Shown here: positions 10,846 through 49,102 of the stretch, in pieces | How positions within the stretch are numbered: the stretch's first letter is position 1 | How the letters are laid out: each line of letters starts with the position of its first letter | Source of the DNA: a virus | Lineage: Duplodnaviria; Heunggongvirae; Uroviricota; Caudoviricetes | IMG/VR virus record: IMGVR_UViG_3300032167_000002 | Span: 88,286 to 152,285 of that record | Length of the DNA: 64,000 bases | Strand: one strand, 5' to 3' | The notes under the pieces: model-generated | What the model saw: only the letters and a program-made list of their open reading frames with translations | What the model was told of the DNA's origin: nothing | The model's database searches: none | Made by a program: the position numbers and the translations under genes

Positions 10846-10910
10846 TATGCGTAATTTCTTTCTTTTAAGAAATTAAGATATAATATACTTTTAAGAAAGG
10901 AGAGAATATT

Positions 10911-13924: not shown

Positions 13925-13941
13925 GAAAGGGGAAAACTATA

Positions 13942-15796: not shown

Positions 15797-18700
15797 ATGA
15801 GTGAAAATTATGGCGTAAAATTTATTCCCGTCCGTGGTTATGACAGTAAGATTCAGCGTGCTGAAGTAAAAGATGGATGGATTTATTTTGCTACTGACTC
15901 AGGTAAGATTTATGTCGATAGCCAGGGCCAAAGAACTATTATGGGTTCTGCGGGCGCCGCAATTTACTATGGTGAAGTTGAGAAACCAGAAGTAAATGAA
16001 GATACGGGCTATGCAACACTTCCTAAGAGCGCTGTTAAAGGCGACCCTAAGAAAGGCGACCTAATCTTAAATTCCGATGGCGGTTTCTATAAAGTTGAAT
16101 TAATTGGTGAAGAAAACTATACTTGTGAATTGCTTTCTATTAGCGGCACAGGCGGTGGTCCCGGTGTTTCTACTACTACTCGTCCATCAATCACTTTAAC
16201 TCTTGACAATACTAACTTCATTAATGGTCAAGAGGCTTATTTCCATATCCATGCAGAGTCTGCTTTAGAGGCAGATGGTGTGACTCCTGTAGATACTACA
16301 TTGAATGTTGTATATTCTTTGGGTACTCGTATTTCCGACGAGGTTATTGATAACTATACTACTCAAACTCGTACTTATAAGACTGGTGAATCTGACTATG
16401 AGGGCGTTCCCGGTATTATTGATGACTATATTGAAATTGGTTCTCTATTAAGAGAGTCCTCTTCTAGTGTGTTGTCTGTTTATGTTCAAGGTGCAAATCA
16501 TGACGAAAAGAGCCGTACTAGAACTGTTGACTTATCAACTTCTGCATTAAAGTTATCTCAAGTTTCCGGTTATAACCCAGCTACTAGATATCCTACTTCT
16601 GGATTCCAAATTAAGTGCGGAGTTGTTGGTTCTTTATCTAAGGTCTTAGATTTCTACTATGATGATATGAATACTCCTGCTGAAACTCGTGTTATCGAGG
16701 CTAACGTAGCTAATAGTACTCAGACATTTACAGTAGGTACAGACAAAGCAACTCACGGATATCACACTGTTCGTATTGAGCTGTGGCAGAACACTGGTAC
16801 TTCCAGTAATCCTAAGAGAGGCTTAGGAGTTGCTCCACTACAGTACGAAATCGCAGTTATTGAAACAAGTAACGCAAATGCTAAACCAGTAATTTGGTTG
16901 GGTGATTATAAGGCTGAATATTATAATTACGATACTATTCAAATCCCATTCTTAGTATGGGACCCCGCAAATACCAACTCTACTAAAGTGCATTTGTATA
17001 AAAATAATATTGAATTAGAAAGCTCTCCTCGTGAAGTTAAGGATTTCTCTAAATTTGATTATTGGGAAATCGCTGATGCAGAAATGAATGCTTTAAATAG
17101 CTATCAAATTTCTTGCGGCGAGACTGATGAAAAATTTGTAAAGAGAGAAATTGAGTTTAAGGTTGTTAAAGACCCTAATCGTGATATGACTGTTGAGCAA
17201 GCAGGATTGTTATTAGACTTCTCTGCTACTGGACGTTCTAATTCTGAGTCCGCAGCTAAGAGACAGTTGTGGAGCTACACTTTGAATGGTGAAAAGAAAA
17301 ACGCCATTTTCGAAAACTTTAACTGGTATAATAACGGTTGGATGATGGATTCAAGCATTAACCAGTCTTGTTTAAGAATTAGTAATGGTGCTAGATTAAC
17401 TATTCCATTCCAGCAGATGGTATTTGCTGCCGGTGTTAGTGGACAAGAGTCTCACACTGTTGAAATGCAATTCCGCATTCGCAATGTTCAAAAATATGAT
17501 AATTTAATTACCAATATTACTCGTTATCAAGGTGACGGTGTTTGGTATGAAGCTTTTAAAGCTCAAAAAGATACTGGCTATTCTAACTATGATGCTTACT
17601 TACAAGCAACTTTAGACCCAGACACTTATGATAATTTAAAATTCCAAACTGTTGAAAAGAATATTAACATTACTAATGTTGCCGCAGGTCTATATGATTA
17701 TGATGCAACCAATGTTAAAGCTACTGGTTTCTGCGTAGGCACTCAGGACGCTTTCTTCTCAAACGGTGAAAATACTGTTAACGTAAACTTCGTTGAAGAT
17801 GAGTTAATTAATTTAAGTTTTGTATATCAAGATAGCTTAAAATATTTATATATCTATATCAATGGTGTTATTACTGGTGTTATTAAGTCTACTGACCCTG
17901 ACGCCTTTACAATTAATAGTGGAAACTTTGTTTTTGATTCTAGTAATTGTGACATTGATTTATATAAATTGAGAATTTATAATTCTGATTTAAATGTTAA
18001 TCAGATTGTACAAAATTTCTCTGTTGACCGCAAGAACGTAAAAATCTTTGACCAAAGTAATGCTTATGCATTGGCTGAGGAGAATAATAACTTGAAAGAG
18101 TTCCAGTTCTCTTATGAAGCTATGCTAAGATATAATGAAGCTCATCCTAATGAACCTTTGATGCCTTATATCATTTACGATACTGGTAATGCTACTTTAC
18201 CATATAGTAAAGACGATACTAAATACATTAGTGTTGAATTTGTTAATACCAATTTGGAAAGAGCATATGCTAATGGTGAATTAGAGACTTTGGCTCGTGC
18301 CGATGGCTTAATCGCAGAAGGCGAAACTGATAGTGATAAAATTAAAGAAGGCGTTCGCTTGTACTACAAGCATCATTGCCCATCTTGGATTTCCACTATG
18401 ACTTCTGGAGATAAGGTTGAATTTGCTGTTCAGGGTACTTCTTCTGAGTTCTATCCTCGTCGTAATTACAAGATTAAGACTAAGGTAGAAGGAGAATTTA
18501 ACTGGAAACCAATCGCAGACTTTACCGATAAGGAGAAGGCTGAATTAAAACCAGAAGAGCTTGAAAAATTAAATGCTGAGAGCGGTTTATATATGGAAGA
18601 AGATTCTTTAAATATCTTCTTAAACCGTGGACCTTATGCTGAAGTTTTCGTTTCTGATAAAGCTAAGTTAGCACAAGATAGTAAATATCTTGGACATGAA

Positions 18701-21700
18701 GAGTGTCGTTGTGCTGATGGTTGGTATATGAATAACTATACTAACGGAACTGATAGATGGACTATGAAAGTTGACTATATGGAATCTTCTGGTTCTTATA
18801 ATGCAGGTTTCGCATCTATGGTTGGTAATGGTTATACTAAGCATCCTTTACAAGACTATTTAGCTTTATTAAATAATACCAATAAATTGGAACCTGTTGT
18901 TGATAGCTCTGTAATTAAGGGTATTCAATGGGGCGATTATCGTACTTCTCTATTGGGCTTCCCAGTTATGGCTTTCCAAAAGACTGGTTCTGGTGATAAT
19001 GCTAAGTACACTTTCATCGGTTTTTATCGTATGCTATTGGATAAGAGCTCTACTCAGGTCTTAGGATTTAAACCTAGTAAGAAAGTTACTAATAAGTTAT
19101 TCCCTAAGGGTTTAAATGATGAAGGTAAAATGGAATATAAGGCAGTACGAGACGTAGCAGAATGTTGGGAGTTCTCTAACAATGCTCGTGGTTATTGCTC
19201 TTATCGTGACCCATGGAGCCGTGTTGAATTAAGTTTCACACCTCCTACTAATTCCACTGTATCTAATGGTGGTTACAATGCTAATGAAGCTCCTGTTGTG
19301 GCTAATAGCTTTGAATATCGCTATCACAGCAAGGATGATTATATTGATATTCTTTACAACTTTAAGCAAGCTACTCAAGGTGAACTTGATGAAGTTGCTG
19401 AAGAGTTAGGAACTGGTACAATTCCTAAGGGCGATTTAGAGGCCGGTGCTAAGGCATTGCTATCTACTCATACTAACTGGGAAAAAGTATGTAAATGGTT
19501 GTGGAGTACTAATCTTGATGCAGTTGTTTCTCAAGGTACTTACTCTAAAGTTCCTGTCGGTGATACCGCATATGAGCCTGGTGTTTACTATGTAGTTGAT
19601 GGTGATTCTTACGCTATTAGTAATGCCGACTTTGATGAAAACACTACCTACTATGTAAAGAGTGAAGTCAACTATGATGTTATCTCTTTAACTGCAGAGA
19701 CTTATATTTCTGGTAAATATTACATCTTAAATGCTGATGGTGAATATGTAATTGATGCAAGCACTTTTGATGCAAATAAGATTTATTATGAGCAGGTTAT
19801 TGAAGACCGCTACATTCCAGTTAATGTATGTCCTGCTGAGTATGTATATGTAAAAGGTAAGTTCTATGTATTAACTGCTGGTGGAAACACTGTAAGCACT
19901 ACTGATGATGTTTATGCATTATCTAATGAAGAATTTGCTGGTGGTACTACTTACTACGAATTTAAAGATGATACTCTAGACACTCTAAATTCTCGTTTTG
20001 ACTTACTGATTGCTCCAGTAGATATTGAGAATGCTACTTATGATGCTAATACTCAGTATTATACTTGGCATGGTATGGACTATGATATGAACGACGCTGC
20101 TAATGGTGTTGTTATTAACCCAGGTCATCCAACCGGTGCAGTCCGCGCGGTCGAAACTCCTTCTCAAGAGGATTGGGCTAAGGGATTATATTATGTAGCA
20201 GCTCCAAAAGAATATGCTGGTAAGGTTTATACTCACGATACTAAAGAATATCGTGCTGCTAAATTTACTAATGAATTTGAAGACCACTTCGACCCTGAGT
20301 ACGTTGCTACTTACTTCGTAATGACTGAAGTTATGGAGTTATACGACTCTCGTGGTAAGAACTGTATGATGGCCTCTTGGGGTCCTCATGAAGCTGGTGG
20401 AGAGTACATCTGGTATCCAATCTTCTATGATATTGATACTCAGTTAGGTATTAACAATACTGGTATTCCTTCATTCGAATTCAATGTTGATGCTACTGAA
20501 GCAGGTAACTTCTCTACTTCTGATAGTATCTTGTGGAACAACTTCTATAAGTTCTTTAAAGACACTTGGATTGTTCCTAAATATAGAAACTTAAGAGGTA
20601 ATGATACTCCTAAGTTTGCTAAATTATTAAATGCAGACGGAACTAGTAAAGCTCCTTTACAGTCTGTTGATTATATTGAAAAGTGGTATACTTTTAATCC
20701 TGATGCAACTAATAATATTGCTTGTGAAGGCGAGCGTCCATTATTAGCTACTAATTTGGATATGTACTTTAAGTATATTACTATTTGTAACCCCAAAGCA
20801 AAAGAAGAGGGCGTTGCTCACTTGGGCGGCGAAGGTTCTGGTGGTGCGTTCGCTGAACCAGACACCGGCACTTACTTCTATGCTTTACAAGGTGACCGTT
20901 CTCAATCTCGTCAGCAGTTCGTTGGAAATCGTCTTGAGTACATTGACTCTTGGTTGACCCAAGGTAACTATGCTCGTGGTGGTGCGAACCGTCTATGGGG
21001 TCGTATTTCTGCTAACAACAGAAGTGACCTTGACTCTGATATTACTGATGTTCACTCTGATAAATGGACCAATAGCGTTGATGACCCATATTGGGTAAAC
21101 AATGTACCTTTTGGAACCAAGACTCACGAGTTTGACTCTGAATATTGGATTGAACCTACTCCAATTCGAAGCGCATATGTTACTGCTGGTGATGACAGTA
21201 TGAACTATCCTTCTAAGAAATATGATGGTATCCATAAGATGCAATTCGTATTAAATGAATTGGAAAATGGTATTAAAAATAGTGACAACTATCCTGAACA
21301 GTTGTTATATATTTATGGTACTAACCAAATGTCTGATTTCGGTGACTTAAGTAAGATGTATTGGACTGAGTTTAAACTTGAGGGTAAGGCTGATAAGCTA
21401 ACTCGCTTGAAGCTTGGTCATGATGGTACTACCATTGACTATAAAGATAGTAATGCAAGTACTAAGACTGAAATTGGTTGGTATAATAAGAAGTTAAATG
21501 GTATTACAGTACCTACTTCACTACCTCTATTAAAAGAAGTTAACTTCTGTAATATTGGTCTAGTAAATGAAACTGCTCTTGATTTTAGCTCTTCTGAAAA
21601 GATGGAAAACTTCAGAGCTACTGGTGCAAGTAACTTAACTTCTGTTACATTTGCAGATGGTGTTGCGTTAAATACTTTGTATTTGCCTGCATCCGTTGGT

Positions 21701-23848
21701 TCTTTGGCCTTAACTCAAGCTAACTTGTTAACTGAATTAATTGGCCATGATGAAGACCATGCATATGAAATTCCCACTTTAAATGTTACTACCGATGAAT
21801 TAGAAGCAAATCCTGGATTATACTTAGAAGGTTTCTTCGAGGGTAGTTCCAAGATGAATACAGTTAAATTTATTGGCGGTAAATTAGGTTATAATAGTTA
21901 CATCATTCTAAAGCAATTGTATACTTTAAATAATAATGCTGGTAATGCCAATGTAACCATGACTGATGTTGAATGGTGTCCTTATACTCATTTAACTGAA
22001 GGTGACGTATTTGATGCTTCTAAGAAGTATTACATTGATAATGGTCACTATGGATTTACTCTGTATAATCCTGATGGTTATGTCTATAATGAAAAGCAGT
22101 TCAATATTGATGTATTGAGTGGTGGCTTGTATCGTGACGATGGACATGGCGGCCGCACTGAGGCTGGCGAATTTGCAGCAGACATTACTAATGTTGCCGA
22201 TGATGCAATTACTATGTTAACCAATTTGTATAGTAATCCTCGCTTCAAGGATGCTAGTGGTCTAAATAGACCTAATATTACTGGTGTAATTTATATCAAT
22301 AATACTACTCCTATTGAAGAAAGTTCTATTCAGGATACTTTACAGATGTATTATCCTAACTTAACATTCTTCTTTGCTAACGTTACTCCTGCATACTCTG
22401 CTAAATTCGTTTTAGTAGATAAAGATACTGGTGCAGAAGGATTCGTTGATTACTTAAGTTCTGATGGATATGGACCTAGTGTTCAGAAGATTAGTCAAGA
22501 AGCTATGGCTGGGGATTCCACTTTGTGGTTTACTAACCCATATAGCTTGTATAAAGTAGAAAGAGCCCACTGGGATTTCTATGGTTGGTCTACTTCTTCC
22601 AATGCCGCAGACAAGAGTAAAATTATTTATGGTGATATCAACGATGATATGACTGACGCAGAAAAGATTGCTGCTCATAATGTAGCTTGGATGGCTGCAA
22701 AATCTAAGCTGTTCGCAGCTGATAAGTTTGACTATCCTTTCTATGCTATTTTAACTGAGCATGAATACGAAGCAGTCTTCTTAGATTACTTCGACCCAAC
22801 ATATAGACAAGTAGCTAAGGTTGCTTACAGTGATAAGGGTTCTTATATGAATGATAATGTTCCCGCACCTGTAAACCTAACTGCCGATGATTTGTATATG
22901 CGTAATGCATTTAAGGGCTGGACTAATGACATTGAAAAGGCTAAAGTTATTTACGGTGAAAATGTTCCTGATGAAGAACTTCCTTTAATCAATGTTTCTA
23001 TGTATCCTGCAACCAGAGATTATACATTCTATGCGGTATATAAGAAGGAAAGTGTTTTTGCAAATGTAACTGACCCAGTGAAATACTTTAATTACACTGT
23101 AGGTTCTAGTTATACTGACGCATATGGTGAAGGCGGAACTTATGATTATTCTAATGGATACATTTTATCTTTGAAGCCTGAATATAAGAATGGCTTCTTG
23201 AAAGGTAAGATTACTTTACCAACTCGAACTCCTTCTGGCATTGATGGTGTAACCGCTGGACAACCAATCTATGAATATCGTGGATTCACTGAAGATGAGT
23301 ATATTACTCATATCTTCTTTGATAGTGCAGCTACTTGTGAAGTTCGTATTATTTACAACAATTTCTTTGCTCGTATGAAAGCTTTGAAATATGTTGACTT
23401 CCCCGCAATGAAGAAGTTGAGAGTTATTAATAATGGCGCTTTTGAAAGCTGTCCTTACTTTAGTAACTTTACATTCTGCGACCCATTAGTATTGATTCAA
23501 ACTTACGCTTTCTCTGCTACTGGTAACTTAGCTGAACCTGTTGATTGCGTATTGAATCCAATGCTAAGAGATATTTTAGGTGGAGCAATTTCTTGGGGTA
23601 TTGCATTGAAAACCTTAACTATTGGTGCAGAAAATTCTCCTTCTCAGTTAACTCAAGAAAAATGGTTAAAGAACAAGAGAGATGTCGCTTGTATCGAAAA
23701 TGGTCAAGGCTCTAGACCTTCTGTCGTAACTATTTATTGTCCATCTGGTATGGAAACCACTTGGAATGATTGGATTGTTGGTGGAGCTAATGGTCAACCA
23801 TTCGTAACCGTTGACAGTATTGATAATATCTCTATTGTCGGAAAATAA
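15797..23848 (+). CDS. Giant virion/tail-associated protein (2683 aa), Asn/Tyr/Thr/Asp-rich and predicted beta-rich, containing no TAG codons.
   Basis: Single uninterrupted ORF. RBS GAAAGGAG 9 nt upstream. Double stop TAATAA. Confidence 0.7.
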   Translation: MSENYGVKFIPVRGYDSKIQRAEVKDGWIYFATDSGKIYVDSQGQRTIMGSAGAAIYYGEVEKPEVNEDTGYATLPKSAVKGDPKKGDLILNSDGGFYKVELIGEENYTCELLSISGTGGGPGVSTTTRPSITLTLDNTNFINGQEAYFHIHAESALEADGVTPVDTTLNVVYSLGTRISDEVIDNYTTQTRTYKTGESDYEGVPGIIDDYIEIGSLLRESSSSVLSVYVQGANHDEKSRTRTVDLSTSALKLSQVSGYNPATRYPTSGFQIKCGVVGSLSKVLDFYYDDMNTPAETRVIEANVANSTQTFTVGTDKATHGYHTVRIELWQNTGTSSNPKRGLGVAPLQYEIAVIETSNANAKPVIWLGDYKAEYYNYDTIQIPFLVWDPANTNSTKVHLYKNNIELESSPREVKDFSKFDYWEIADAEMNALNSYQISCGETDEKFVKREIEFKVVKDPNRDMTVEQAGLLLDFSATGRSNSESAAKRQLWSYTLNGEKKNAIFENFNWYNNGWMMDSSINQSCLRISNGARLTIPFQQMVFAAGVSGQESHTVEMQFRIRNVQKYDNLITNITRYQGDGVWYEAFKAQKDTGYSNYDAYLQATLDPDTYDNLKFQTVEKNINITNVAAGLYDYDATNVKATGFCVGTQDAFFSNGENTVNVNFVEDELINLSFVYQDSLKYLYIYINGVITGVIKSTDPDAFTINSGNFVFDSSNCDIDLYKLRIYNSDLNVNQIVQNFSVDRKNVKIFDQSNAYALAEENNNLKEFQFSYEAMLRYNEAHPNEPLMPYIIYDTGNATLPYSKDDTKYISVEFVNTNLERAYANGELETLARADGLIAEGETDSDKIKEGVRLYYKHHCPSWISTMTSGDKVEFAVQGTSSEFYPRRNYKIKTKVEGEFNWKPIADFTDKEKAELKPEELEKLNAESGLYMEEDSLNIFLNRGPYAEVFVSDKAKLAQDSKYLGHEECRCADGWYMNNYTNGTDRWTMKVDYMESSGSYNAGFASMVGNGYTKHPLQDYLALLNNTNKLEPVVDSSVIKGIQWGDYRTSLLGFPVMAFQKTGSGDNAKYTFIGFYRMLLDKSSTQVLGFKPSKKVTNKLFPKGLNDEGKMEYKAVRDVAECWEFSNNARGYCSYRDPWSRVELSFTPPTNSTVSNGGYNANEAPVVANSFEYRYHSKDDYIDILYNFKQATQGELDEVAEELGTGTIPKGDLEAGAKALLSTHTNWEKVCKWLWSTNLDAVVSQGTYSKVPVGDTAYEPGVYYVVDGDSYAISNADFDENTTYYVKSEVNYDVISLTAETYISGKYYILNADGEYVIDASTFDANKIYYEQVIEDRYIPVNVCPAEYVYVKGKFYVLTAGGNTVSTTDDVYALSNEEFAGGTTYYEFKDDTLDTLNSRFDLLIAPVDIENATYDANTQYYTWHGMDYDMNDAANGVVINPGHPTGAVRAVETPSQEDWAKGLYYVAAPKEYAGKVYTHDTKEYRAAKFTNEFEDHFDPEYVATYFVMTEVMELYDSRGKNCMMASWGPHEAGGEYIWYPIFYDIDTQLGINNTGIPSFEFNVDATEAGNFSTSDSILWNNFYKFFKDTWIVPKYRNLRGNDTPKFAKLLNADGTSKAPLQSVDYIEKWYTFNPDATNNIACEGERPLLATNLDMYFKYITICNPKAKEEGVAHLGGEGSGGAFAEPDTGTYFYALQGDRSQSRQQFVGNRLEYIDSWLTQGNYARGGANRLWGRISANNRSDLDSDITDVHSDKWTNSVDDPYWVNNVPFGTKTHEFDSEYWIEPTPIRSAYVTAGDDSMNYPSKKYDGIHKMQFVLNELENGIKNSDNYPEQLLYIYGTNQMSDFGDLSKMYWTEFKLEGKADKLTRLKLGHDGTTIDYKDSNASTKTEIGWYNKKLNGITVPTSLPLLKEVNFCNIGLVNETALDFSSSEKMENFRATGASNLTSVTFADGVALNTLYLPASVGSLALTQANLLTELIGHDEDHAYEIPTLNVTTDELEANPGLYLEGFFEGSSKMNTVKFIGGKLGYNSYIILKQLYTLNNNAGNANVTMTDVEWCPYTHLTEGDVFDASKKYYIDNGHYGFTLYNPDGYVYNEKQFNIDVLSGGLYRDDGHGGRTEAGEFAADITNVADDAITMLTNLYSNPRFKDASGLNRPNITGVIYINNTTPIEESSIQDTLQMYYPNLTFFFANVTPAYSAKFVLVDKDTGAEGFVDYLSSDGYGPSVQKISQEAMAGDSTLWFTNPYSLYKVERAHWDFYGWSTSSNAADKSKIIYGDINDDMTDAEKIAAHNVAWMAAKSKLFAADKFDYPFYAILTEHEYEAVFLDYFDPTYRQVAKVAYSDKGSYMNDNVPAPVNLTADDLYMRNAFKGWTNDIEKAKVIYGENVPDEELPLINVSMYPATRDYTFYAVYKKESVFANVTDPVKYFNYTVGSSYTDAYGEGGTYDYSNGYILSLKPEYKNGFLKGKITLPTRTPSGIDGVTAGQPIYEYRGFTEDEYITHIFFDSAATCEVRIIYNNFFARMKALKYVDFPAMKKLRVINNGAFESCPYFSNFTFCDPLVLIQTYAFSATGNLAEPVDCVLNPMLRDILGGAISWGIALKTLTIGAENSPSQLTQEKWLKNKRDVACIENGQGSRPSVVTIYCPSGMETTWNDWIVGGANGQPFVTVDSIDNISIVGK

Positions 23849-24130: not shown

Positions 24131-24160
24131 GCAAATTTAAAGAAAGGATGATATTTAGAA

Positions 24161-26092
24161 ATGATTACTTCTATTAAAAATGCAGATTATTCATTCCTTT
24201 TTGCAGATGCTGGAAAGCTACTGTTAGAGCTGGATAGCCAGGGAAAATTGAAGACTCCTCTGCAGCAAGCTGAAAAAGACGAATTAAATCAATTCGATCG
24301 TTTCTCTTCTTTGGAGAAGTATTTTACCCGTTTGGGAGACTTGGTCGATAATGCTGATAACCCAATTAAATATTTAATGTTGCCTTTAGATGAACCTTGT
24401 TTAGAGGTAAATGCTAATACTAGAATTATTACTATTCCTGATGGTTTCAAGAAATACGGCGCTGGCGTTCAAGGTGACGTAATTGCCGAGACTTTGTTCT
24501 TACGCATTGACCGCTTCTTCGATTCTATGGACTTCATGATGACTGAGCCTTATATTCAGTGGAAGCTGAAAAATGGTGAGCAGGGCGCAACTCCTATTCC
24601 TTATATGGATTATGAGAGCGAGCATCATTTAGGTAAGTTGATTTTGGTATGGCCTTTAACTGGTGCAGTTACCGCACAAGAAGGTCCTGTTGAATTCTCT
24701 TTACGTTTCTTAAAGAGAGATGGCGACAAGGTTGTTTATAGCTGGAACTCTGTTCCTGCAACTATCACTATTAAGCAGGCATTAAAGCCCGTAGTTGATT
24801 ATGTTGAATATGATGATGCTGCTTCTTTATTTAAGCTAGCAATTGAAAATAGTGAGCATACTTCTGATAGTGATACTGTAGACCCACCTTCCTTCGATGC
24901 TCCTGGCTATTCTATTGGTTTTGAAAACAATGTTATTCATTTGGATAAGAATAACGCTGTAACTTTGGCTGGTCAAGCTTGGGTTGAAGGTCAGGGACAT
25001 TTGTCTTATGATTGGGAGTACAGTAACTTAACTGGCAATATTGTCGTTGCTGGTATCAATGTTCAAGGTGCTGAAACTACAGCTTTCAAGGAAACTGAAG
25101 ATGATGCTCCAGTTGAGTATAAGGTTTACTATGTACAAAACGCAAGTGCTACTCCTTATGGATATGAGGAATTGCCTCATAATCAGTTCGAAACCACTAA
25201 GGAAGAGAATATCGCTATTTATGAGCGTTATGCCATTTATAGAATTACTGAAAGCATTAGTCCTGCTGCTGATGCTCCTGGTGTTGTAACTGGTACTTAC
25301 AAGCTAATTGCTAAACATAAGCTAGGATTCCCTTCTGCTTCTAAGTCTTTGAGTGTTACTATTCCTGGTCCCGAGGTTTTGGAATTCGTTTCTGGTGATA
25401 AAGACGCTGATGAAAAAGCTTTAGGATTGCCTGCAAATGGTATTTTACTAGATGAAAATGATGGCTTAACATTGAATGTTGAAGTTAAGAATGATGGTGC
25501 GCCTGCTGCAGCTTATCAGTCTATGACTTATTTGTGGAAGAAGAATGTTAACGATGACAAAGAAGATGGCATGGTTGATGTTATTTCTCACACTTATGAT
25601 AATAATACCGAGGGTAAGATTGGTAAAGTCACTGATGATTTGACTTTAGAGACTGCTGAACCCGGCTGGTATAAGGTTTATGTTACTTCTATGTTGAACC
25701 GCGATGATATTGCTATTGAGAGTAATGTTGCTCGTGTGACTAGAGCTCCAGAAGCTCCAGTCTTGAAATATCCTGCTTCTTCTGAATATTCTAAGCAGCT
25801 TGAGGCTCAAGCATTCCCCAACCGCTTAGTTGAAATTGTGATTGAGCATGAGGCTTTTGATGAGCCTGTAGCTTTACACTCTGATAGACTAATCTATGAG
25901 TGGTACGATGAAGATAAGCTATTGACTCAGGACACTCCTGGTGTTAGCTTTGATGGCAATAAGCTATTGATTGATGGTAGTAACATTCATGGTGACGTTA
26001 TGTTCATCCATTGCTATGTAACTAATGAATTAAATGGTGCCTACTCCGCAAGAGAAGATGCTCACTCTGGTAACTTTGTTGTAAGTTTCTAA
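24161..26092 (+). CDS. Baseplate/tail structural protein (643 aa) with no amber codons. Its N-terminal domain is paralogous to the next gene (RIDRFFDSMDFMM versus KVDRFFDYMDL).
   Basis: Intact ORF with RBS AAAGAAAGGATG and TAATAA stop. Confidence 0.55.
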   Translation: MITSIKNADYSFLFADAGKLLLELDSQGKLKTPLQQAEKDELNQFDRFSSLEKYFTRLGDLVDNADNPIKYLMLPLDEPCLEVNANTRIITIPDGFKKYGAGVQGDVIAETLFLRIDRFFDSMDFMMTEPYIQWKLKNGEQGATPIPYMDYESEHHLGKLILVWPLTGAVTAQEGPVEFSLRFLKRDGDKVVYSWNSVPATITIKQALKPVVDYVEYDDAASLFKLAIENSEHTSDSDTVDPPSFDAPGYSIGFENNVIHLDKNNAVTLAGQAWVEGQGHLSYDWEYSNLTGNIVVAGINVQGAETTAFKETEDDAPVEYKVYYVQNASATPYGYEELPHNQFETTKEENIAIYERYAIYRITESISPAADAPGVVTGTYKLIAKHKLGFPSASKSLSVTIPGPEVLEFVSGDKDADEKALGLPANGILLDENDGLTLNVEVKNDGAPAAAYQSMTYLWKKNVNDDKEDGMVDVISHTYDNNTEGKIGKVTDDLTLETAEPGWYKVYVTSMLNRDDIAIESNVARVTRAPEAPVLKYPASSEYSKQLEAQAFPNRLVEIVIEHEAFDEPVALHSDRLIYEWYDEDKLLTQDTPGVSFDGNKLLIDGSNIHGDVMFIHCYVTNELNGAYSAREDAHSGNFVVSF

Positions 26093-26113
26093 TAACTTGA
26101 AAGGAGAGGTAAA

Positions 26114-26701
26114 ATGATTATTTCAACCGAAGAATATTATAAGTATCTTGCTTATATTCAATCAAACAATCGGCCAACAATTGCTATTTTACCTTCGTCT
26201 GAAAAAGTCTACAATATTGACTTAAAAACTCGTCAAATTGAAACGCCAGAGTATCTGAGTGTTGAACATGACCATAAATCTGAAACGGTCTATTTTAAAG
26301 TAGACCGTTTCTTTGATTATATGGACTTGTCACAAACAGTATGCATCGTTCAATATGTAACCGCAGATAATAAGGCTCGCATTTATGCAGTACCTTTTTA
26401 TGATGTTACTTCTTATGCTGACGAGGAAAAAATGTTGATTCCTTGGTGTATTGATGGCGGTGCAACTGCGGTCGCAGGTACAGTCCAATATTCAATTCGA
26501 TTCTACAAGGTTGATGAAGTAGGACAGCAATTTATTTATAACTTAAACACTCGTCCAACAAAGAGTAAAGTATTATATGGTATGGATGTTCAAAAAATTA
26601 ATCATGATTATGATTTAGCTCCTACTGTATATGATGAAATTATCCAAAAGTTGGATGAATTTAGTGAAGCTTTAGGTAGCTTCTGGGAAGAGTTATATTG
26701 A
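26114..26701 (+). CDS. Baseplate/tail protein (195 aa), paralogous to the N-terminus of 24161..26092.
   Basis: Intact ORF with RBS AAAGGAGAGG and TGA stop followed by a terminator. Confidence 0.55.
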   Translation: MIISTEEYYKYLAYIQSNNRPTIAILPSSEKVYNIDLKTRQIETPEYLSVEHDHKSETVYFKVDRFFDYMDLSQTVCIVQYVTADNKARIYAVPFYDVTSYADEEKMLIPWCIDGGATAVAGTVQYSIRFYKVDEVGQQFIYNLNTRPTKSKVLYGMDVQKINHDYDLAPTVYDEIIQKLDEFSEALGSFWEELY

Positions 26702-27716: not shown

Positions 27717-30134
27717 ATGAGTTTACAAGTATGGTTACCATTAAATAATCATATTAATAACCAAGGATTAAATACTATTCGTTTTAAAAGCTCAAATGTT
27801 TCTTACACTCAAGGTAAGTTGGGCTATTGCGCTAGTGGCACCATTCAAGGAACTGCCGCAGAATTAAATTCAACAGATGGTTTTTGTTGTAGTTTCTGGT
27901 GGAATATTGCCAATGGAGATAGCTATAATATTAAATTTCCTATTACTAACACAGGTATTGATGATATTTTTAATATGGCAAAAATGGATTATACTTCCAA
28001 TTATGCTATTAAATTACATTGCAATAATAACAAACCTCAAATGATTTGGATTTATGATACTCGTTCTACTTCTGGAGTATGGGAGCTTGGAACCTGGAAT
28101 CATTATGTTATTAATGTTAATAATGGAGATTTCGGTGTATAGGTAAAAGTATTTGTAAATGGAGCTTTAAAACATCAATACAATAGCGCTGATTATAATT
28201 TTACATTACGCCCTGGTACCATTAGTATTAGTGGAACAGCAAAAATGAATGATTTTAGATTATATGACCATCCACTTTGTCTAAAAGAAATTGATGAATT
28301 AAGTAGAGGTCTAATGCTTCATTATCCTTTACGAGATAGTACTTTACAAAGCACAACTAATTATTTATTGTATCCAACCCCTGGTAGTAGAGTAAGTGCT
28401 GGATGGGACTCTTCTTTACATCCAAATGCTATTAATGTATCTGGATTTACTGCAGGGTATAACAGTGGTGTTGATTCACCAACAATTGGTTATCATGCCT
28501 ATTGGAATGTTATAGATGACGTGCCTACAATGGTGTTTCCAAATTTAAATTCAGCATATAATTATAAAGGCCGTTGGTTAGGAATTTCTTCATGGGGTAC
28601 TGTTAATTTAGCGTAGGCGATTGGTAAAGGTAATAAATATACTATTTCTTTTGAAGCTAAAAGTGATATAAAAGGTAAAACAGTACAGTTTGGTTTATAT
28701 TATAGAAAAAATGGAGCAACTTCAAATAACTTCCATGATGGACAACATTAGTAGAGCTTAACTACAACTTGGAAAAAATATTCATACACTTGGACTCTTG
28801 GACAAGACGGTGATAGTTCTAATGTGGGAGCAGTATATATGTATGGTCATTATGGTATTGAAGGAACTGCTTATGTAAGAAATATTTAGTTAGAAATTAA
28901 TGACCATGCAACAGATTATGTTTCTGGTAGTAGAGAAGCTTCTAAGGTCTATGACTGTTCGGGTTTTGGACATCACGGTCGTGTAGTAGGAGCAGTATCG
29001 ATGATGCCAGATTCTAGTCGCAATAAATATTCTGCATACATCACAGATGGTCGTAGTAATTATATTGCAAGTGATACTATGATATTTCCAAAAGATAGTA
29101 TAACTATGAGTTGCTGGGTTAAAGGTAGTAACGCAGGATATAGTAATTATCATATTCCATTAAGCTTTGGTAGTGCTAATTATGAATTTTCATTGGAGGG
29201 AACGACTGGTAAATTCCGCGCTGGATATGTTATTAGTGGAACTCGCTAGTGCGTAACAACAAATGGTACTACTATTGATGGGAAATGGCATATGATTACA
29301 TCTACATTTGATGGAACAACTATTCGTAGATATGTTGATGGAATACCTTTAACATCTACTGCGGCCGCAGGTACTTTATCCGGTGGTACTGGTAATTTAT
29401 TGGTTGGTAATTATAATGGTACTACATATGGTAATAGTAAATTATATACTAGTGATGTTAGAATTTATGCTACAGCACTAGATGAACTATAGATTAAAGA
29501 ATTATATTTAAATGGTGCCACTGTAGATAATGGTGGTAATGTTTATGCTTATGAGTTCACTGAAGAGGGCGACAACTCAGTCTTTAAAGAAGGAGTAGTT
29601 GACTTTGAGAATTTTATTGAGTATAATATTAATAAGATAATGAGATATGATGGTGATTTGTGGGTACAAATTTTACATCATAATAATAGAGCTGGTACTA
29701 AGTATTTTACACCATCTAATGCCGCCAATCATACAGAAGAAGACTTATATAGTAGGCTTTATTTAACTGAATAGTTAAGAGGAGCTGATGGTGCATTTGA
29801 ATTTTTAGTTTTGCAACCTGATGATGATGCAGGTACTGTATATAGATGGATTCAAACAAATAATCCAAACAATACAACTTCTGTAACAGGATTTAAAAAC
29901 ATTTCTAATATGAGTGGAGGATTAGTAAAATGCTCGGGTAATACTCATTGGGCAATTTCAACCTCTACTGGAAATTGGTGGAATGCAGTGGGATGCTGGA
30001 CCGCTTATAATGGAGGCATTCCTGGATTTGGTAAAAAAACTATTAAAGGGTCTTTAGATGTGTATGTAAAGTTAGATAAAAGAACAAGCTTTTTAATCGA
30101 CTCTATTGAAACTCAAAACTATTATGAATTTTAA
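27717..30134 (+). CDS. Large tail-fibre/receptor-binding protein with LamG-like (concanavalin-type lectin) domains, about 805 aa. Eight in-frame TAG at 28140, 28614, 28749, 28752 (adjacent TAG-TAG), 28887, 29247, 29490 and 29772. Paralogue of 32793..35219.
   Basis: Frame-3 ORFs 27717..28142, 28245..28616, 29001..29249, 29292..29492 and 29811..30134 are joined through TAG only. The 28617..29000 and 29493..29810 gaps were verified codon by codon. LamG signature DFRLYDHPLCLKEIDEL / DVRIYATALDEL. TAA stop at 30132. Confidence 0.65.
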
Positions 30135-32792: not shown

Positions 32793-35219
32793 ATGAGTTT
32801 ATTAATATGGTTACCATTACATGGTAATTTAGAAAACTATGGTTCTTCTCCAATAAAATTTAGTTTAAATACTACTGGTGGCGGTGTTGCAGCTGCCACC
32901 AGTGGTGGAAAAACAGATATGCGCTGTTATCAACGAACAGCTATTAATACAGTTTCTCATATTACTAGTGATTCCACAATTGATTTAAATAAAGATTTTA
33001 CTATGGCATGTTGGTGTTATCCAACCACTCCTGGTAATGCTACTTCTGCAAATGGAATTCTAACGAATCATAATCATTCTCATAATAGTGATAAAGGTAG
33101 TGGTTCAGGAATTACTTTAAAATATAGTGGTAATACAACTTGTTATATGAGTTGTAATACTTCTTCTTCTACTGGAAGAACATATTATTCATATTATGGA
33201 ACTACAAACATCTATGGAGCTTGGCATCACTTATGTTTAACCTATAAGAAATCTACTAAAACTTATCGTTTATTTGTAGATGGTATTTGCGAAAAGGAAT
33301 TTACTTGCGAGAATGTATCTGCTGCAAATAAATTTAATATATTTGATTGGTCTGTCGGGCATTCAAATAATGGGTCATATAGACCCGCCTGTAAAATTAA
33401 TGATGTGCGAGTATATGATGAATGTTTATCCAAAAGAGAAGTGAAATTATTAAGTCAAGGTTTAGTTTTACATTATAAATTAGATGGCGGAAATGCGAAT
33501 AATTTATTAACTAATTCTTATACGATTGGAAATAGACAAACCTCTTTTGATAAGGTCTATGGATTTCCTGTCTGTAGTGCAGATAATAGTGCAGGCACTG
33601 GATATAAAGATTTTGCTTCTTGGGGAGGACACTCTGTTTCTATAAATGAAGTATATACAGCAAGTTTCTTTGCTAAATCATCTACTTCAAGTACTTTAAC
33701 TATGTACTTTTATAATAATACATCTGGCGTGGTTCAAGTTTCTAATATTAAATCATCTGAAGGACATAATAAAAGCGGCAGTGATGGCAATTGTCCTCTA
33801 TCATTAACTCCTCAATGGAAAAAATATACAGTAACTTGGACTTTTGCAGCAAGCGGAACAACTACAAATAAAACCTTGCTATTTAGACTTGCGGCAGGTG
33901 GTAAATGTGATATAGCTTTACCAAAATTAGAAAAAGGTTCGATTGCTACCCCTTATTGCCCAGCATTAAGTGAAACATTTTTTAATGCTGCTGATGATTG
34001 TAGTGGATATGGTCGTAATGGCACAACAGTTGGTAATATTACTTTTAGCTCTGATACTCCACGCTATGCGGCAAGCTCTGTGTTTGATGGTTCAACCACA
34101 GGCATTAATTTACCAATTAAAGATTTAATGAAAGCAGTATTGAGTGATAAGTGTACTATTAATTTTTGGGTAAAAGAATCAAATACATCAAGTAGAAGTA
34201 TTTACTTTGGCGGTTATAGTGGTAGTAATTTTAATATTGAACAAAATGTAACATCTTTCCGAGTATATTGGAATGGTAGTCCAGATTTATCAGTAGGTAC
34301 AATTACTAATAACGAATGGGCTATGTGGACTGTTACAACAGATATTGCTACTGGTATTAAAATATATAAAAATGCAACTTTAGTAAAAACTCATACGGGT
34401 GCTCTTACTAATATTGCTTCAAGTTTTACAAGAGATTTTAATATTGGTAAAGATAGTAGAACTGATGATACAATGATGGAAGGTAAAATGTCAGATTTTA
34501 GAATTTATGCTTCTGTATTGTCTGCTACTGATATTAAAGACTTATATCAAACTGCAGCGTCAATAACTAAAGAGGGTTCTGTATAGGCTTATGAATTTAT
34601 TGAAGAGCCTGATAGTTTTGATATTAAAATGACTAAATAGGGTATGTTAAAAGCTGCTGACATTTCTGAAATTGGATATATTGGCGGTATGAAAGTTAAA
34701 GTGCTATCCGACAATAGTGCTTGGGCACGTATTCATTGGCTTGACGTGACTACGGATAAAACTTGGTTTACTGCTAGCGAAGTTGCCTTTTGCAATTAGG
34801 CTAATCGTTTTAGTCGAATGGGTTTAGTAGACCATTTTAAAGTAGATGGTAAATATGAGTTTATGTTAACTTATCCGTCTTTGTCAAATTCTTTATATAA
34901 TAGATGGACACAAACAAGCTCTCCAAATGCAAGTACTGTAACTGGTTTTACTGCTATTACAACAGCATGGAATAATCATAATGCAGGCATTCGTAAACAT
35001 GGTTCAGCTTGCGTCTATAACTGTGACACTGGCTCAACTTGGTTTGCTCCTATTGGACAGAAATCTGCTTGGGATAGTACTAAATTTATTCCTGCCGCAG
35101 ATGGCACTTCACAAACTGAAACAGAATTGTGGGTAAGAATTGATACATTACCCAACTTAACAAAAACTAGTATGCTTGATAAAGAATATTTACAAGCATT
35201 TAAGATATATGAAATTTAA
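32793..35219 (+). CDS. LamG-domain tail-fibre/receptor-binding protein (about 808 aa), paralogue of 27717..30134 (MSLLIWLPL... N-terminus, NDVRVYDECLSKREVKLL and DFRIYASVLSATDIKDLY LamG signatures). TAG at 34584, 34638 and 34797.
   Basis: RBS TAAGGAGGAG. Frame 3 ORFs 32793..34586 and 34818..35219 are joined via TAG-only segments. TAA stop at 35217. Confidence 0.65.
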
Positions 35220-39498: not shown

Positions 39499-39753
39499 AT
39501 GATGTATCCAGTAGACCCAAATGTTTTAATTCAAATGATTAAATCCGGGCGGAATCCTCAACAGTTGATGTTATCAATTTTACAAGGACAAGCCTATAAC
39601 AATCCCCTCGGAAAAAATCTCCTAAATTTAGCTCAACAAGGTCGAACCGACGAACTAGAGAAAGTAGTTCGTAATATTTACGCTCAATAGGGCGGTTCTA
39701 ATTTCGACCAGGAGTTCGAAGCCTTTAAACGTGCATTAGGCTATCAAAATTAA
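39499..39753 (+). CDS. Small hypothetical protein (84 aa) with TAG at 39688 read through.
   Basis: RBS TAAGGAGGT. Frame 1 continues past TAG to TAA 39751. Confidence 0.5.
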
Positions 39754-39773
39754 AATTTAAGGAGGACACAATT

Positions 39774-40496
39774 ATGTTTAATGGAAAAGGTTACAATTTA
39801 TCTGATATCGCTGCTGTAACTGGTAATCGCAATGGCGATGGTATGTGGGGCGATAATGGCTGGTGGATTATCCTGTTATTCTTGTTCGCAGGATGGGGCC
39901 GCGGCGGATTTGGCGGCTTTGGTGGCGGCTATGAAGCACCTTGTGCTACCCAAGCTGATGTCCGTGCCGCAGTTGACCAGCAAACTTTAATTTCTAAATT
40001 AGACAACCAGACTTATGGTTTGGCAGATTCTACTTACGCATTAAATAACTCTATTATGAGTGGTTTCCATGGAGTAGATACTGCTGTTTGCACTCTTGGC
40101 TACAATATTCAGAGTGGCTTTAACACTTTAGGTCACCAGATTAGTGATTGTTGCTGCGAGACTGGCCGTGCAATTGAGCGTGGCTTTGCAGAGACTAACT
40201 ATAATATGGCAACTCAGGCTTGCGACACTCGTCGCGCAATCGCAGACAGCACCCGTGACATTATTGATGCTAATAATGCTGGTGTTCGTTCTATCTTAGA
40301 CTTCTTGACTAATGATAAGATTGCTACTTTGACTGCTGATAACCAATCTTTGAAGTTCCAGGCTTCCCAGGCCGCACAGAACGCTTACTTGGTAAATCAG
40401 TTACGTCCATGCCCAGTTCCCGCTTATACCGTTCCTAATCCCTACTGCTGCAATACCTACTTTGGTGGATGCGGCAATGGTTTCGGTACTTTCTAA
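39774..40496 (+). CDS. Membrane-anchored protein (240 aa) with an N-terminal TM helix (WWIILLFLFAGW), a Gly-rich linker, and a Cys-rich C-terminal domain (CCCETG...PCPVPAYTVPNPYCCNTYFGGCGNGFGTF).
   Basis: Intact ORF with RBS AAGGAGGA. Hydrophobic segment and cysteine clusters seen by eye. Confidence 0.55.
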   Translation: MFNGKGYNLSDIAAVTGNRNGDGMWGDNGWWIILLFLFAGWGRGGFGGFGGGYEAPCATQADVRAAVDQQTLISKLDNQTYGLADSTYALNNSIMSGFHGVDTAVCTLGYNIQSGFNTLGHQISDCCCETGRAIERGFAETNYNMATQACDTRRAIADSTRDIIDANNAGVRSILDFLTNDKIATLTADNQSLKFQASQAAQNAYLVNQLRPCPVPAYTVPNPYCCNTYFGGCGNGFGTF

Positions 40497-40515
40497 TCTA
40501 AAGGGGGTTTAATTT

Positions 40516-40935
40516 ATGGAAATTATTGCTAATGCTCTTCAGACAGTTCCAGCAAATCAAAATGTTTATTTCACTGATACTGTGATTTGTGGTAATGCTA
40601 CGATTGGTCATCGTGATGATAGTGGTTTAGTTACTCTAAGAGGTTTAACCGACCAATGCCGGGCTAGATTCCGTGTTTCTTTTGGAGCTAACATTGGACT
40701 ACCAGCGGACGGAACAGTTGGCCCAATTTCTTTAGTTATTGCTATCAATGGTGAGCCTGTACGTGCTACTACTATGACAGTAACCCCAGCGGCAGTTGAG
40801 CAATTTTTCAATGTATATGCTTCTTTATATGTCGATGTTCCTCGTGGATGCTGTGTAACTATTAGTGTTCAGAATATTACAACTGATGATGTTGATGTTC
40901 AAAATGCTAATTTAATTGTTGACCGCACCGCTTGA
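40516..40935 (+). CDS. Small beta-rich protein (139 aa), possibly a C1q/TNF-like (BclA C-terminal-domain-like) trimer-forming module.
   Basis: Intact ORF with RBS AAAGGGGG. The resemblance is impressionistic. Confidence 0.4.
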   Translation: MEIIANALQTVPANQNVYFTDTVICGNATIGHRDDSGLVTLRGLTDQCRARFRVSFGANIGLPADGTVGPISLVIAINGEPVRATTMTVTPAAVEQFFNVYASLYVDVPRGCCVTISVQNITTDDVDVQNANLIVDRTA

Positions 40936-40949
40936 AAGGAGGAATAAAT

Positions 40950-41585
40950 ATGCATGAAGAAAGATTAAAGCATATGAAAGAAACTCTAATGTGTGCTGTT
41001 GAAATGCAGCTATGTGATTTAGGTGAGGTAGATACCAAAGAGCTTGGAGAAGCTATTGATATGATTAAAGATTTAGAGGAGGCAATCTACTATTGCACCG
41101 TCACTGAAGCTATGAAAGGCAATGGCTCAGAAATGGAGTTTGAAATGAAAAAAGGCGGCCATCACCAAGAGGAAAATGGTGACAGCCGCATGTATTATAG
41201 TGGCTCTCGCTATCCAATGATGTACGCCGACGAGGGACGTCGTCGTAGAGCTGATGGAACCTTCTATAATGACCCAATGTATATGGACGGCGGGTCTGGA
41301 AATGGTACCAGTTATATGGATAACGGAACTAGTCATATGGACCGTGGAAACGGAACCATGTATCGCGATGAGCGTGAGGGCCGCAGCTACAATAGCCGCA
41401 GAATGTATATGGAAGCCAAAGATATGAAGAGAGATAAAGCTACTCAACTTCGTGAGTTAGAGAAGTATATGCAAGAGCTATCTCAAGACATCACTGAAAT
41501 GATTGCGGACGCATCTCCAGAGGAGAAAGCATATCTTGAAAAGAAGATTACCGCATTGGCTTCTAAAATCGGTCAAATGAAATGA
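40950..41585 (+). CDS. Hypothetical protein (about 211 aa) with a low-complexity Met/Tyr/Gly/Asn-rich repeat region (YMDGGSGNGTSYMDNGTSHMDRGNGTMYRDE) flanked by helical ends.
   Basis: RBS AAGGAGGAATAAAT plus ATG 40950 (the track starts at 40932). TGA stop overlaps the next start. Confidence 0.5.
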   Translation: MHEERLKHMKETLMCAVEMQLCDLGEVDTKELGEAIDMIKDLEEAIYYCTVTEAMKGNGSEMEFEMKKGGHHQEENGDSRMYYSGSRYPMMYADEGRRRRADGTFYNDPMYMDGGSGNGTSYMDNGTSHMDRGNGTMYRDEREGRSYNSRRMYMEAKDMKRDKATQLRELEKYMQELSQDITEMIADASPEEKAYLEKKITALASKIGQMK

Positions 41586-41893: not shown

Positions 41894-41940
41894 AAAAAGG
41901 GTCGTATATGATTTATTCATATACGACCCTTTATTTTTTT
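41893..41940. terminator. Bidirectional rho-independent terminator (A7-GGGTCGTATATG...ATATACGACCC-T-rich) separating the + late module from the - module.
   Basis: Perfect 11-12 bp stem flanked by an A-run on one side and a T-run on the other. Confidence 0.75.
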
Positions 41941-42538
41941 ATGTGCAAATAGCCCACCCAGTAGATGTACCATCTTTGTTAATATATGGAATAGCAACTT
42001 TCCATCCATTAGCAGTTCCATCAACATTGACATATGGTATTGCACTCTTCCATCCATTGGCAGTTCCATCAATATTAATGCGAACTAATCCTCCACCATT
42101 AATCACTGTACCTCCATAAGTAGAGCTATCTCCTCGGTTTCTGATAATAACAATAGTAGGATTTGATTTACGAACAAAATGAAATCTAAAAGTTACTGTT
42201 GACCCAGCGGCTACATATACTCCTCCAAATGTAAAAGTTTTTTGTTCCGTATTATAATAGTTTCCTCCGCTAGTTTTATTGCTTACAGTAATTGTATTGG
42301 ACGTATGCGATGTTCCGTTAGAATCAGTAACAGTTACATAAACATCATATGCATATCCATATCCAGTAACAGTATCTCCCTAATTGTATGTTCCATTACC
42401 TGAAGCAAGACCTATTCTGCATGCAGTTATTAGTTGAGGTGTAGAACCAGTATTTTTATATTTGAGTAAATTTCTACTATAAGTAGCATCTATGCCCTAA
42501 TAAGAAAAACTCCAATCACTATGAGTACTCCATCCCAT
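41939..42538 (-). CDS. Hypothetical protein (199 aa) with two TAG read through. C-terminal tandem repeats of about 13 aa (DGTANGWKSAIPYVN / DGTANGWKVAIPYIN / DGTSTGWAI), possibly a wall-binding module.
   Basis: Not in the track because it is split by TAG. Translated manually from the reverse complement. ATG at rc(42536-42538) and TAA at rc(41939-41941), 600 nt in frame. Confidence 0.5.
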
Positions 42539-42616
42539 TATCTTTTCTCCTTTATCTCTTTTTTAATAAAAAATTTGGTGAAGTAAAAATATAAAATTAC
42601 TTCACCAAATTATGGT

Positions 42617-43087
42617 TTAGACAGGAACCTCATCGTCAGTCTTTAAAGGTAAAGCAATTGCCTTATTATAATAAGTTTCAGCTTGACCATTTCCACCTAA
42701 GCCTTTATATAATTTATAGAATTCCATTAATTGTTCCATCTGGGATTCAGTAATGTATTCTTGGCGTAAAAATCCTTTGCACAATTGGATTAAACGGAAA
42801 CGGTAAGAAGCAACAATTAAGTTCATATGAGATTTCTCTAAGTTCTCATTGTCGCGGCAATACTTTCTTAAATCTTCTAATTCTTGATAAATTGGTTCTA
42901 ATTCAACTTCAATGTGAGTACCAATTCTTTCATCAAGCTTTTGTTCTGCAATAATACGAGCATTTTCTTCGGCTTGGAGTTTTTCTTTCTTTAATTTATC
43001 ACCATGCCATTTTGCCCAACCCATTACAATAGCACTAATTAGACCGAACAAAATTTCTGTTCCCCACTCTGCTAAAAGAGCTTCCAT
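42617..43087 (-). CDS. Hypothetical protein (156 aa) with an N-terminal transmembrane helix (ILFGLISAIVMGWAKW). Possible holin-like or membrane protein.
   Basis: Track ORF. Hydrophobic N-terminus seen by eye. Confidence 0.5.
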   Translation of the reverse strand: MEALLAEWGTEILFGLISAIVMGWAKWHGDKLKKEKLQAEENARIIAEQKLDERIGTHIEVELEPIYQELEDLRKYCRDNENLEKSHMNLIVASYRFRLIQLCKGFLRQEYITESQMEQLMEFYKLYKGLGGNGQAETYYNKAIALPLKTDDEVPV

Positions 43088-43154
43088 AATAAAAGTTTTC
43101 CCCCTTTCAACTTCTCTATTGGATAATAAAAGAAGTGAAAGAGGGATTATCTAG

Positions 43155-43640
43155 TTAAGACCAATCGAATACTTCGACTTTATTATTTACATAGTGAGCA
43201 CCAATACAAATAGCATCACACTCATCTTGAGTAGGTTTTACACCATAAGTTTTTTCAACCCAAGCCTATGCGGCTTTCTTCTGGGCTGGACGGTCTTTAC
43301 CCTTAATACCAAGAGTAGATTTCCAAACGGTTGAAAGAACTGCGGTTCGAGGCATCTTTAATGTTACAAATAATTCATATAAAACACCAAAGACTTCTGC
43401 TAATGCTTTAAAAGTTTGAACATTGTTTGCAACATTGCCTTGAAGCTAAATATCTTCAAAAACAACTTCATCAATATCATATTCATTAATGAGTTGATTT
43501 ACTTTACTCCGAATAAAGTGAAGTCTATCTCCAACATCAGAATGGTCAGCAGTAAACTTACCATATTTTAGAAGCTTACCATCTTCAAATATGGCCCAGC
43601 CGCTTGTTCGGCTTGCCTAGTCTAATGCTAAAAGACGCAT
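43155..43640 (-). CDS. RuvC-like Holliday-junction resolvase (161 aa) with three in-frame TAG read as sense.
   Basis: Reverse-complement translation gives MRLLALD-ASRTSGWAIFEDGKLL...DEVVFEDI-LQG...CDAICIGAHY, a RuvC-family signature. Only TAG interrupts. ATG overlaps the dUTPase stop (TAATG). Confidence 0.65.
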
Positions 43641-48878: not shown

Positions 48879-49102
48879 ATGTCAACTTCCTCCTCAAATT
48901 CGTATTCTAATTTGCCGGGAAGTTCACCCTCCCAGAATGTTGCATGACCATCGCAATCGGGATTCTCACACTTATAAGGATATTGTGCTGGATAAGTAGT
49001 GAGACAAATGCCAGTGGGGATTAACTCCCCACCGCACTTATCACAAATTGCTCTGGTTGTATAAATATTTTTTACCTTATATCGTTTAAGCATCTTCCTC
49101 AA
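48857..49102 (-). CDS. Small zinc-ribbon protein (81 aa; CDKCGG...CENPDCDGH).
   Basis: Track ORF. Cys pairs seen by eye. Confidence 0.5.
   Translation of the reverse strand: MRKMLKRYKVKNIYTTRAICDKCGGELIPTGICLTTYPAQYPYKCENPDCDGHATFWEGELPGKLEYEFEEEVDICTKLLP

Follow-up and report, generated by a model that had tools for sequence, protein, structure and literature searches.

Two adjacent in-frame amber codons (TAG-TAG) are present on the + strand, at 28749–28754, of a 64,000-nucleotide stretch of viral DNA (positions 88,286 to 152,285 of IMG/VR record IMGVR_UViG_3300032167_000002; Caudoviricetes); this stretch, referred to here as the window, comes from a large tailed phage of the gut type. The two codons lie inside a gene (27717–30134) that encodes an 805-amino-acid lectin-like virion protein, and very probably they represent an ordinary, unconserved glutamine-glutamine dipeptide at residues 345–346, without a function of its own, in a phage that uses genetic code 15. 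As judged from codon usage and alignments, TAG is a glutamine codon in most structural genes of this phage, and the pair is an ordinary case of an already known phenomenon.

The TAG pair and the reading of TAG as glutamine

Direct reading of the sequence gave GGA CAA CAT TAG TAG AGC TTA at 28740–28760, which places the pair at codons 345–346 of a frame of 805 codons that runs from an ATG at 27717 to a TAA at 30132–30134. The initial annotation had reported a tandem in-frame TAG inside 27717–30134 (...GQH-TAG-TAG-SLTTTWKKY...), and both the sequence and the translation that it gave were confirmed (...FHDGQH-TAG-TAG-SLTTTWKKY...). The peptide stretch that spans the Gln-Gln of the pair is ...FHDGQHQQSLTTTWK..., and the reading of these two codons as Gln-Gln draws on the sequence, on the alleles of the gene at related loci (L numbers), and on a model strand at residues 344–347. 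Internally, the frame is interrupted eight times, each time by TAG and never by TAA or TGA. Two TAGs are located 5′ of the pair, at codon 142 (28140–28142), which is AAA (Lys) in L004, L006, and L240, and at codon 300 (28614–28616), which is CAA in L004 and L006. Downstream of the pair, TAG is found at codon 391 (28887–28889; CAA in L006), codon 511 (29247–29249; CAA in L004, L006, and L240), codon 592 (29490–29492; CAA in L003, an allele with 96.9% identity), and codon 686 (29772–29774; also TAG in L003 and L239). The TAGTAG sequence is also present in L001, L002, and L239, which are independent assemblies from other samples; the pair is therefore not a sequencing or assembly error.

Several comparisons support glutamine as the amino acid inserted at TAG. 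In a codon-by-codon alignment with the corresponding region of L003, six of the seven well-aligned changes that involve TAG were exchanges with CAA or CAG. Across six alleles of the gene, the columns in which TAG occurs contained 80 codons other than TAG, of which 39 encode glutamine and eight the next most frequent residue; at codon 391, TAG stands at a glutamine position conserved without exception among 41 homologues (alignment A1). The recoded open reading frames (ORFs) of the window contain 53 TAG, 186 CAA, and 25 CAG codons, as compared to 94 CAA and 63 CAG codons in nine TAG-free + strand ORFs (including three at 39729–41585); such a scarcity of CAG in TAG-bearing ORFs would follow if C-to-T transitions at CAG were the main source of TAG. 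One exception to the pattern is codon 62 of the L004 homologue (window 27900–27902), a TAG that adjoins an invariant Trp column and for which the remaining five alleles have TGG (Trp); this TAG may reflect a real Trp-to-Gln change or an error.

The strain comparison also indicated that the gene is translated over its full length. Third codon positions accounted for 47 of the 66 nucleotide differences from L239 and 49 of the 75 differences from L003, and synonymous changes prevailed in the segments before and after the TAG pair; this bias on both sides of the pair argues that the whole 805-codon frame is translated and under purifying selection. Comparable recoding is well documented. TAG-to-Gln recoding has been found to be enriched in late and lytic genes of gut phages (Borges et al., bioRxiv 10.1101/2021.08.26.457843), and Peters et al. 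(PMC9523058) report TAG as glutamine in crAss-like phages with confirmation by proteomics. Like the code 15 gut phages of these two studies, the phage described here presents TAG as its only in-frame stop, with TAG equivalent to CAA or CAG in alignments.

Conservation, frequency, and context of the TAG pair

Codons 345–346 are TAG-TAG in the window and in L001, L002, and L239, three alleles that either match the window exactly or are approximately 97% identical to it (97.3% nucleotide identity for L239). The initial annotation had proposed that the tandem might have a special role and had suggested a comparison with related genomes; that comparison, carried out here, revealed sense codons at both positions and refutes such a role by the standard that the annotation itself had set. 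The closely related allele L003 has TAG-CAG at the pair and a TAG at codon 343, where the window has CAA. Among relatives with about 70% amino acid identity, L004 and L005 have CAA-GAA, L006 has GGT-CAA, and L240 has GGT-TAG. Across the 41 homologues, the amino acids in the two columns are highly variable; the columns lie between the conserved motifs FHDG and LTTxWK(K/R)YS. In-frame TAG codons in structural genes of persisting gut phages have been shown to be gained and lost synonymously over a few years (Lou et al., bioRxiv 10.1101/2023.08.07.552389); similarly, the window differs synonymously from L003 and L239 at codons 343, 346, and 592. Unlike that study, our comparison is between samples and not along a time series, and the direction of change that we propose for codon 346 is inferred.

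The adjacency of the two TAGs is in agreement with chance. Glutamine codon identities were shuffled within genes and, separately, TAGs were placed at random; for the 12 recoded + strand ORFs of the window, these tests yielded an expectation of 0.31–0.32 adjacent TAG pairs, with a probability of 0.27 of observing at least one. In the gene studied here, TAG makes up 8 of 22 Gln-type codons, a larger share than in any other gene of the window, and there is a single Q-Q dipeptide. For related phages, all fetched loci were used, comprising 300 distinct recoded ORFs with 235,001 codons, 4,116 in-frame TAGs, and 727 Q-Q dipeptides; 75 in-frame TAG-TAG pairs were observed, as compared to 87–104 expected. 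Because these ORFs are phylogenetically related, no significance can be assigned to this deficit. At the nucleotide level, 52 copies of the hexamer TAGTAG were counted on the two strands of the window, against 34 ± 5 expected from dinucleotide-preserving shuffles; this excess is probably an effect of codon usage, and the copy at 28749 is the only one that forms two in-frame codons in a called ORF of the window.

No local signal was found that would set the pair apart from other TAG codons. Folding of the 120 nucleotides from the pair onward gave no evidence of unusual RNA structure (z = −0.24 relative to shuffled sequences), and the base that follows in-frame TAGs showed no bias (G 18, A 16, T 11, and C 8, similar to general first-base usage of codons). 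Moreover, the TAGs at codons 142 and 300 are decoded before codon 345 is reached, and the pair cannot therefore act as a gate. A regulatory choke point that would prevent synthesis of the full-length protein, as put forward in the initial annotation, is thus contradicted by the lack of conservation, by the two upstream TAGs, by the lack of enrichment in related phages, and by the ordinary structural and base context.

The same annotation had held that tandem stops need very efficient suppression; efficient read-through is indeed indicated by the purifying selection that acts before and after the pair, but the need for it stems from the total number of TAGs in a gene and not from their adjacency. 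A neighbouring gene of the same phage contains 17 TAGs, and tape-measure ORFs of relatives contain 41–108; with a read-through of 95% per codon, 41 TAGs would leave a yield of approximately 12%. Such totals per gene necessitate near-complete decoding, whether TAGs are adjacent or not. The tape-measure ORFs of relatives (L212 and L214–L237; approximately 2,750–3,300 codons) stand out for their extreme recoding density.

Decoding of TAG and alternative readings of the pair

Most likely, the two TAGs became adjacent when a single C-to-T transition turned CAG into TAG at codon 346, in a lineage of very recent origin. The resulting Gln-Gln would lie in a variable stretch of a carbohydrate-binding module (CBM)-like β-sandwich of the lectin-type virion protein and would be translated like the other 51 in-frame TAGs in + strand ORFs of the window. 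Following the published model, TAG would be decoded late in infection by a suppressor tRNA with a CUA anticodon, charged with glutamine; in that model, the phage tRNA(CUA) is produced from early genes that use the standard code, and the host glutaminyl-tRNA synthetase charges it (Borges et al., bioRxiv 10.1101/2021.08.26.457843). The TAG set as a whole, rather than any one codon, would then delay all TAG-bearing late genes together, as proposed by Borges et al. and Peters et al. (PMC9523058).

A tRNA gene that could fill this role was searched for in the window and beyond it. No tRNA was identified in the 64 kb of the window (ARAGORN, and Rfam at gathering and E-value thresholds) or in the 10 kb and 6.7 kb past its ends in the same phage (L007 and L010), with approximately 50–78 kb of this phage lying outside the reach of the search. 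The nearest IMG/VR relative, whose tape-measure ORF contains 41 TAGs, was covered in five steps plus one on the tape-measure side (L011, L033, L071, L130, L135, and L212), with ARAGORN run on every locus, and likewise yielded no tRNA; approximately 6 kb of this genome lay beyond the search, and a metagenome scan for these last 6 kb matched just one unrelated short contig. More distant relatives carry tRNA arrays; a tRNA with a CTA anticodon was found in L115, L140, and L141 only. A comparison of these CTA tRNAs with phage tRNA-Gln genes did not place the latter clearly closest, and the result was not used. According to published surveys, a CUA suppressor tRNA is present in just 35–40% of recoded phages. 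A different arrangement, which we regard as unlikely, is that this heavily recoded lineage with SPbeta-like replication has no conventional suppressor tRNA and that a host factor or an unrecognised RNA reads its TAGs, which number dozens in a gene, tandem pairs included.

Some observations weigh against the interpretation of the pair as an ordinary Gln-Gln decoded by a suppressor tRNA. Glutamine is assigned to TAG by codon interchange and not by peptide data, and the decoder of TAG in this lineage is inferred; no tRNA was found in the window, in its flanks, or in approximately 126 kb of the nearest relative (132 kb in all). In addition, the deficit of tandem pairs in related phages could represent mild selection against pairs, implying some kinetic cost. 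For the tandem itself, a small kinetic cost or benefit is the sole residual possibility.

If TAG were instead a true stop, the frame would consist of fragments or a pseudogene, or would encode a 344-residue product with a fail-safe double terminator; the standard-code calls of JGI/IMG, which give only pieces of 66–123 amino acids, and the suppressor tRNA not found in the window or its flanks speak for this reading, which is nevertheless almost certainly incorrect. Frames in this region are interrupted by TAG alone and never by TAA or TGA, the 805-codon frame is conserved in hundreds of homologues, differences at third positions prevail before and after each TAG, and TAG interchanges with CAA and CAG; furthermore, translation would already stop at the TAGs of codons 142 and 300, well short of residue 344, and a β-sandwich domain spans the site of the pair in the structural model. 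The pseudogene or true-stop reading was rejected on the grounds of purifying selection and codon interchange. Decoding of TAG as another amino acid (e.g., Tyr, Trp, Lys, or pyrrolysine) is highly improbable as well. ARAGORN names the CTA tRNAs of the distant relatives "tRNA-Pyl", a label given by anticodon alone, the sequences of these tRNAs do not place phage tRNA-Gln genes clearly closest, and isolated columns pair TAG with TAT, TGG, or AAA; against this stand the predominance of glutamine codons among the non-TAG partners (39 of 80, with no other residue above eight), the exchange with CAA or CAG in six of seven changes between near-identical strains, the TAG in an invariant glutamine column, the scarcity of CAG exactly in the TAG-bearing genes, and the published cases of phage TAG recoding, which are glutamine (including that of PMC9523058).

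Another proposal regards the tandem as a selected kinetic checkpoint, at which two consecutive binding events of the suppressor tRNA would delay completion of this receptor-binding protein beyond that of all other proteins and tie its synthesis to a high level of that tRNA. A general code-switch model for late genes has been published, the gene has the highest TAG share of the window, and the TAG-TAG allele persists in several samples, all of which would be consistent with such a checkpoint. Nevertheless, the proposal is largely refuted, and we consider it very unlikely, since an allele as close as 96.9% identity has lost the pair (TAG-CAG), relatives at approximately 70% identity lack it, two TAGs precede it in the same gene, tandem pairs are not enriched in the 300 related recoded ORFs, adjacency fits chance, and neither the sequence nor the structural context is special.

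The lectin-like virion protein and the gene blocks of the phage

The gene that contains the TAG pair (27717–30134, + strand; eight in-frame TAGs, ending in TAA) is assigned to a lectin-like virion protein on the basis of Pfam and PHROG matches and a structural model. Pfam searches identified Laminin_G_3 (E = 2.2e-21) and, at residues 301–367, CBM_4_9 (E = 1.1e-06), and the PHROG match was 26670, "virion structural protein". Remote tblastn matches were virion structural proteins of Vibrio jumbo phages, and identity to annotated phage proteins did not exceed 33%. The AlphaFold model (mean predicted local distance difference test (pLDDT) score of 84.6) presents a chain of all-β, β-sandwich domains, for which Foldseek matched LNS/laminin-G domains, receptor-binding domains of botulinum toxin, and CBM22. 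In this model, residues 344–347 form a short β strand in the CBM-like domain (block mean pLDDT of approximately 90), the other strands of which (307–316, 322–329, 353–360, 372–376, and 383–393) flank the pair; according to the model, a stop after residue 344 would leave the domain incomplete and broken.

A public protein collection contains an identical 805-amino-acid protein (P0001) with Q at every TAG, found on several contigs, together with 815 homologues; the standard-code annotation by JGI/IMG of the same ORF is limited to short pieces (P0121–P0124). A search of the protein against IMG/VR returned no relative, and relatives of the gene were taken from the protein collection and from contig look-ups. 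Nucleotide searches with this gene and with an 8-kb ORF of the window gave no match among GenBank phages. The gene is located among fibre-like ORFs downstream of the tape-measure gene, and its product can reasonably be labelled a putative tail fibre or receptor-binding protein, consistent with the sequence matches and the model. The initial annotation had called it a tail-fibre gene; a lectin/CBM-type virion protein in the tail block is well supported, while the tail-fibre identity itself is plausible but not proven. Like known lectin/CBM-type receptor-binding proteins of phages, the protein contains ConA-like and CBM-like β-sandwich domains, is encoded in the tail block, and has remote homologues labelled as virion structural proteins; it differs in its low identity to annotated phage proteins (at most 33%), and its role as a tail fibre or in receptor binding is a prediction from sequence and model.

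A paralogous gene at 32793–35219 (+ strand) encodes a lectin-like virion protein of 808 amino acids with three in-frame TAGs; BLASTP aligned it to the protein studied here over the full length (24% identity, E = 9e-39), with Cys-Pro opposite the TAG pair (...DGNCPLSLTPQWKKY aligned to ...DGQHQQSLTTTWKKY). The tail block contains two to three such paralogous Laminin_G_3 genes interleaved with fibre-like genes. In the relative L004, lectin-like copies are found at 838–2844, 4653–7037, and 9368–11728, and both the copy number and the size (665–805 amino acids) of these genes vary among relatives, which suggests cassette-like exchange of receptor-binding modules.

Contigs bearing proteins identical to those of this phage are 130–160 kb in length. 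Some contigs with its proteins, observed for the P0001 cluster and in a look-up of the YorF-like protein, reach 0.2–1 Mb (longest given, 406,409 bp, JGI); these oversized contigs may be concatemer assemblies or may represent a prophage in a host contig, the latter of which would identify the host. The structural (late) gene block occupies 1–39488 on the + strand, where joining across TAG yields long ORFs over the first approximately 39.5 kb; 12 of its 18 ORFs hold 53 in-frame TAGs, and these 12 recoded ORFs have no internal TAA or TGA. The tape-measure gene of this phage is found in L010, just ahead of the start of the window. On the − strand, 41939–63921 forms a replication and nucleotide-metabolism block that encodes NrdD, a DnaE-type polymerase, Dda-like and DnaB-like helicases, and a YorF-like protein, with large genes free of TAG; NrdD, the polymerase, and the two helicases contain no TAG and are therefore readable in the standard code.

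TAGs are clustered in structural ORFs, with exceptions in both directions: 1–4 TAGs are found in a few ORFs of the replication block, and several large ORFs of the structural block are TAG-free. The presence of TAG in some replication-block ORFs means that early genes in the standard code are not cleanly separated from late recoded ones. The TAG-bearing ORFs of the replication block (48309–48881, 56068–57840, and 41939–43643, all on the − strand; 1–4 in-frame TAGs) include a RecJ-like gene with TAG at codons 58 and 83. A GIY-YIG (homing-endonuclease-type) ORF approximately 3 kb past the right end of the window (L007, 6855–7880) sits in the same block with nine TAGs in 341 codons, a density far above that of its TAG-free neighbours. 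The TAG-free ORFs of the structural block (10884–12392, 13918–15663, 15797–23848, 24152–26092, and 26096–26701) are flanked by recoded genes and use CAG freely (26 CAG in an ORF of 2,684 codons); in 2-kb windows, G+C around these ORFs was 0.34–0.39, as compared to 0.28–0.32 over the recoded ORFs at 1–10 kb. The TAG-free structural ORFs could represent a recent gain from a standard-code phage or genes that are expressed earlier.

This organisation resembles that of the code 15 gut phages of Borges et al. and Peters et al. in that TAG is found mainly in structural genes, large replication genes follow the standard code, and standard annotation fragments genes. It differs in that the replication module is SPbeta-like (DnaE-type polymerase and YorF- and YorH-like proteins), that the examined sequence revealed neither a suppressor tRNA nor a release factor or tRNA synthetase, and that some large structural genes (e.g., 15797–23848) are entirely free of TAG. 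Phage phAss-1, of the proposed Phassvirus group (Babkin et al., PMC10607447; GenBank OQ749652), is likewise a gut phage with a genome of approximately 130–160 kb, a DnaE-type polymerase, and TAG read as glutamine in tape-measure, tail-fibre, and other characteristic genes. However, the polymerase encoded in the window is just 38% identical to that of phAss-1 (hit H4), no closer than to those of Bacillus SPbeta-like phages (also 38%), and no nucleotide match to phAss-1 was found; phAss-1 also carries 36 tRNA genes, including three tRNA-Sup-CTA, none of which were found in the lineage studied here.

The sole item that merits follow-up is the lack of a detectable suppressor tRNA in those parts of this lineage that were covered. 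For annotation, the window needs to be translated with code 15, given that the standard code splits the gene into pieces of 66–123 amino acids, and the TAG pair should be annotated neither as a gene end nor as a regulatory element. For the biology of these phages, the finding that tandem TAGs are common (75 in 300 ORFs) and unenriched argues that decoding of amber codons late in infection is near complete, and not a leaky read-through.

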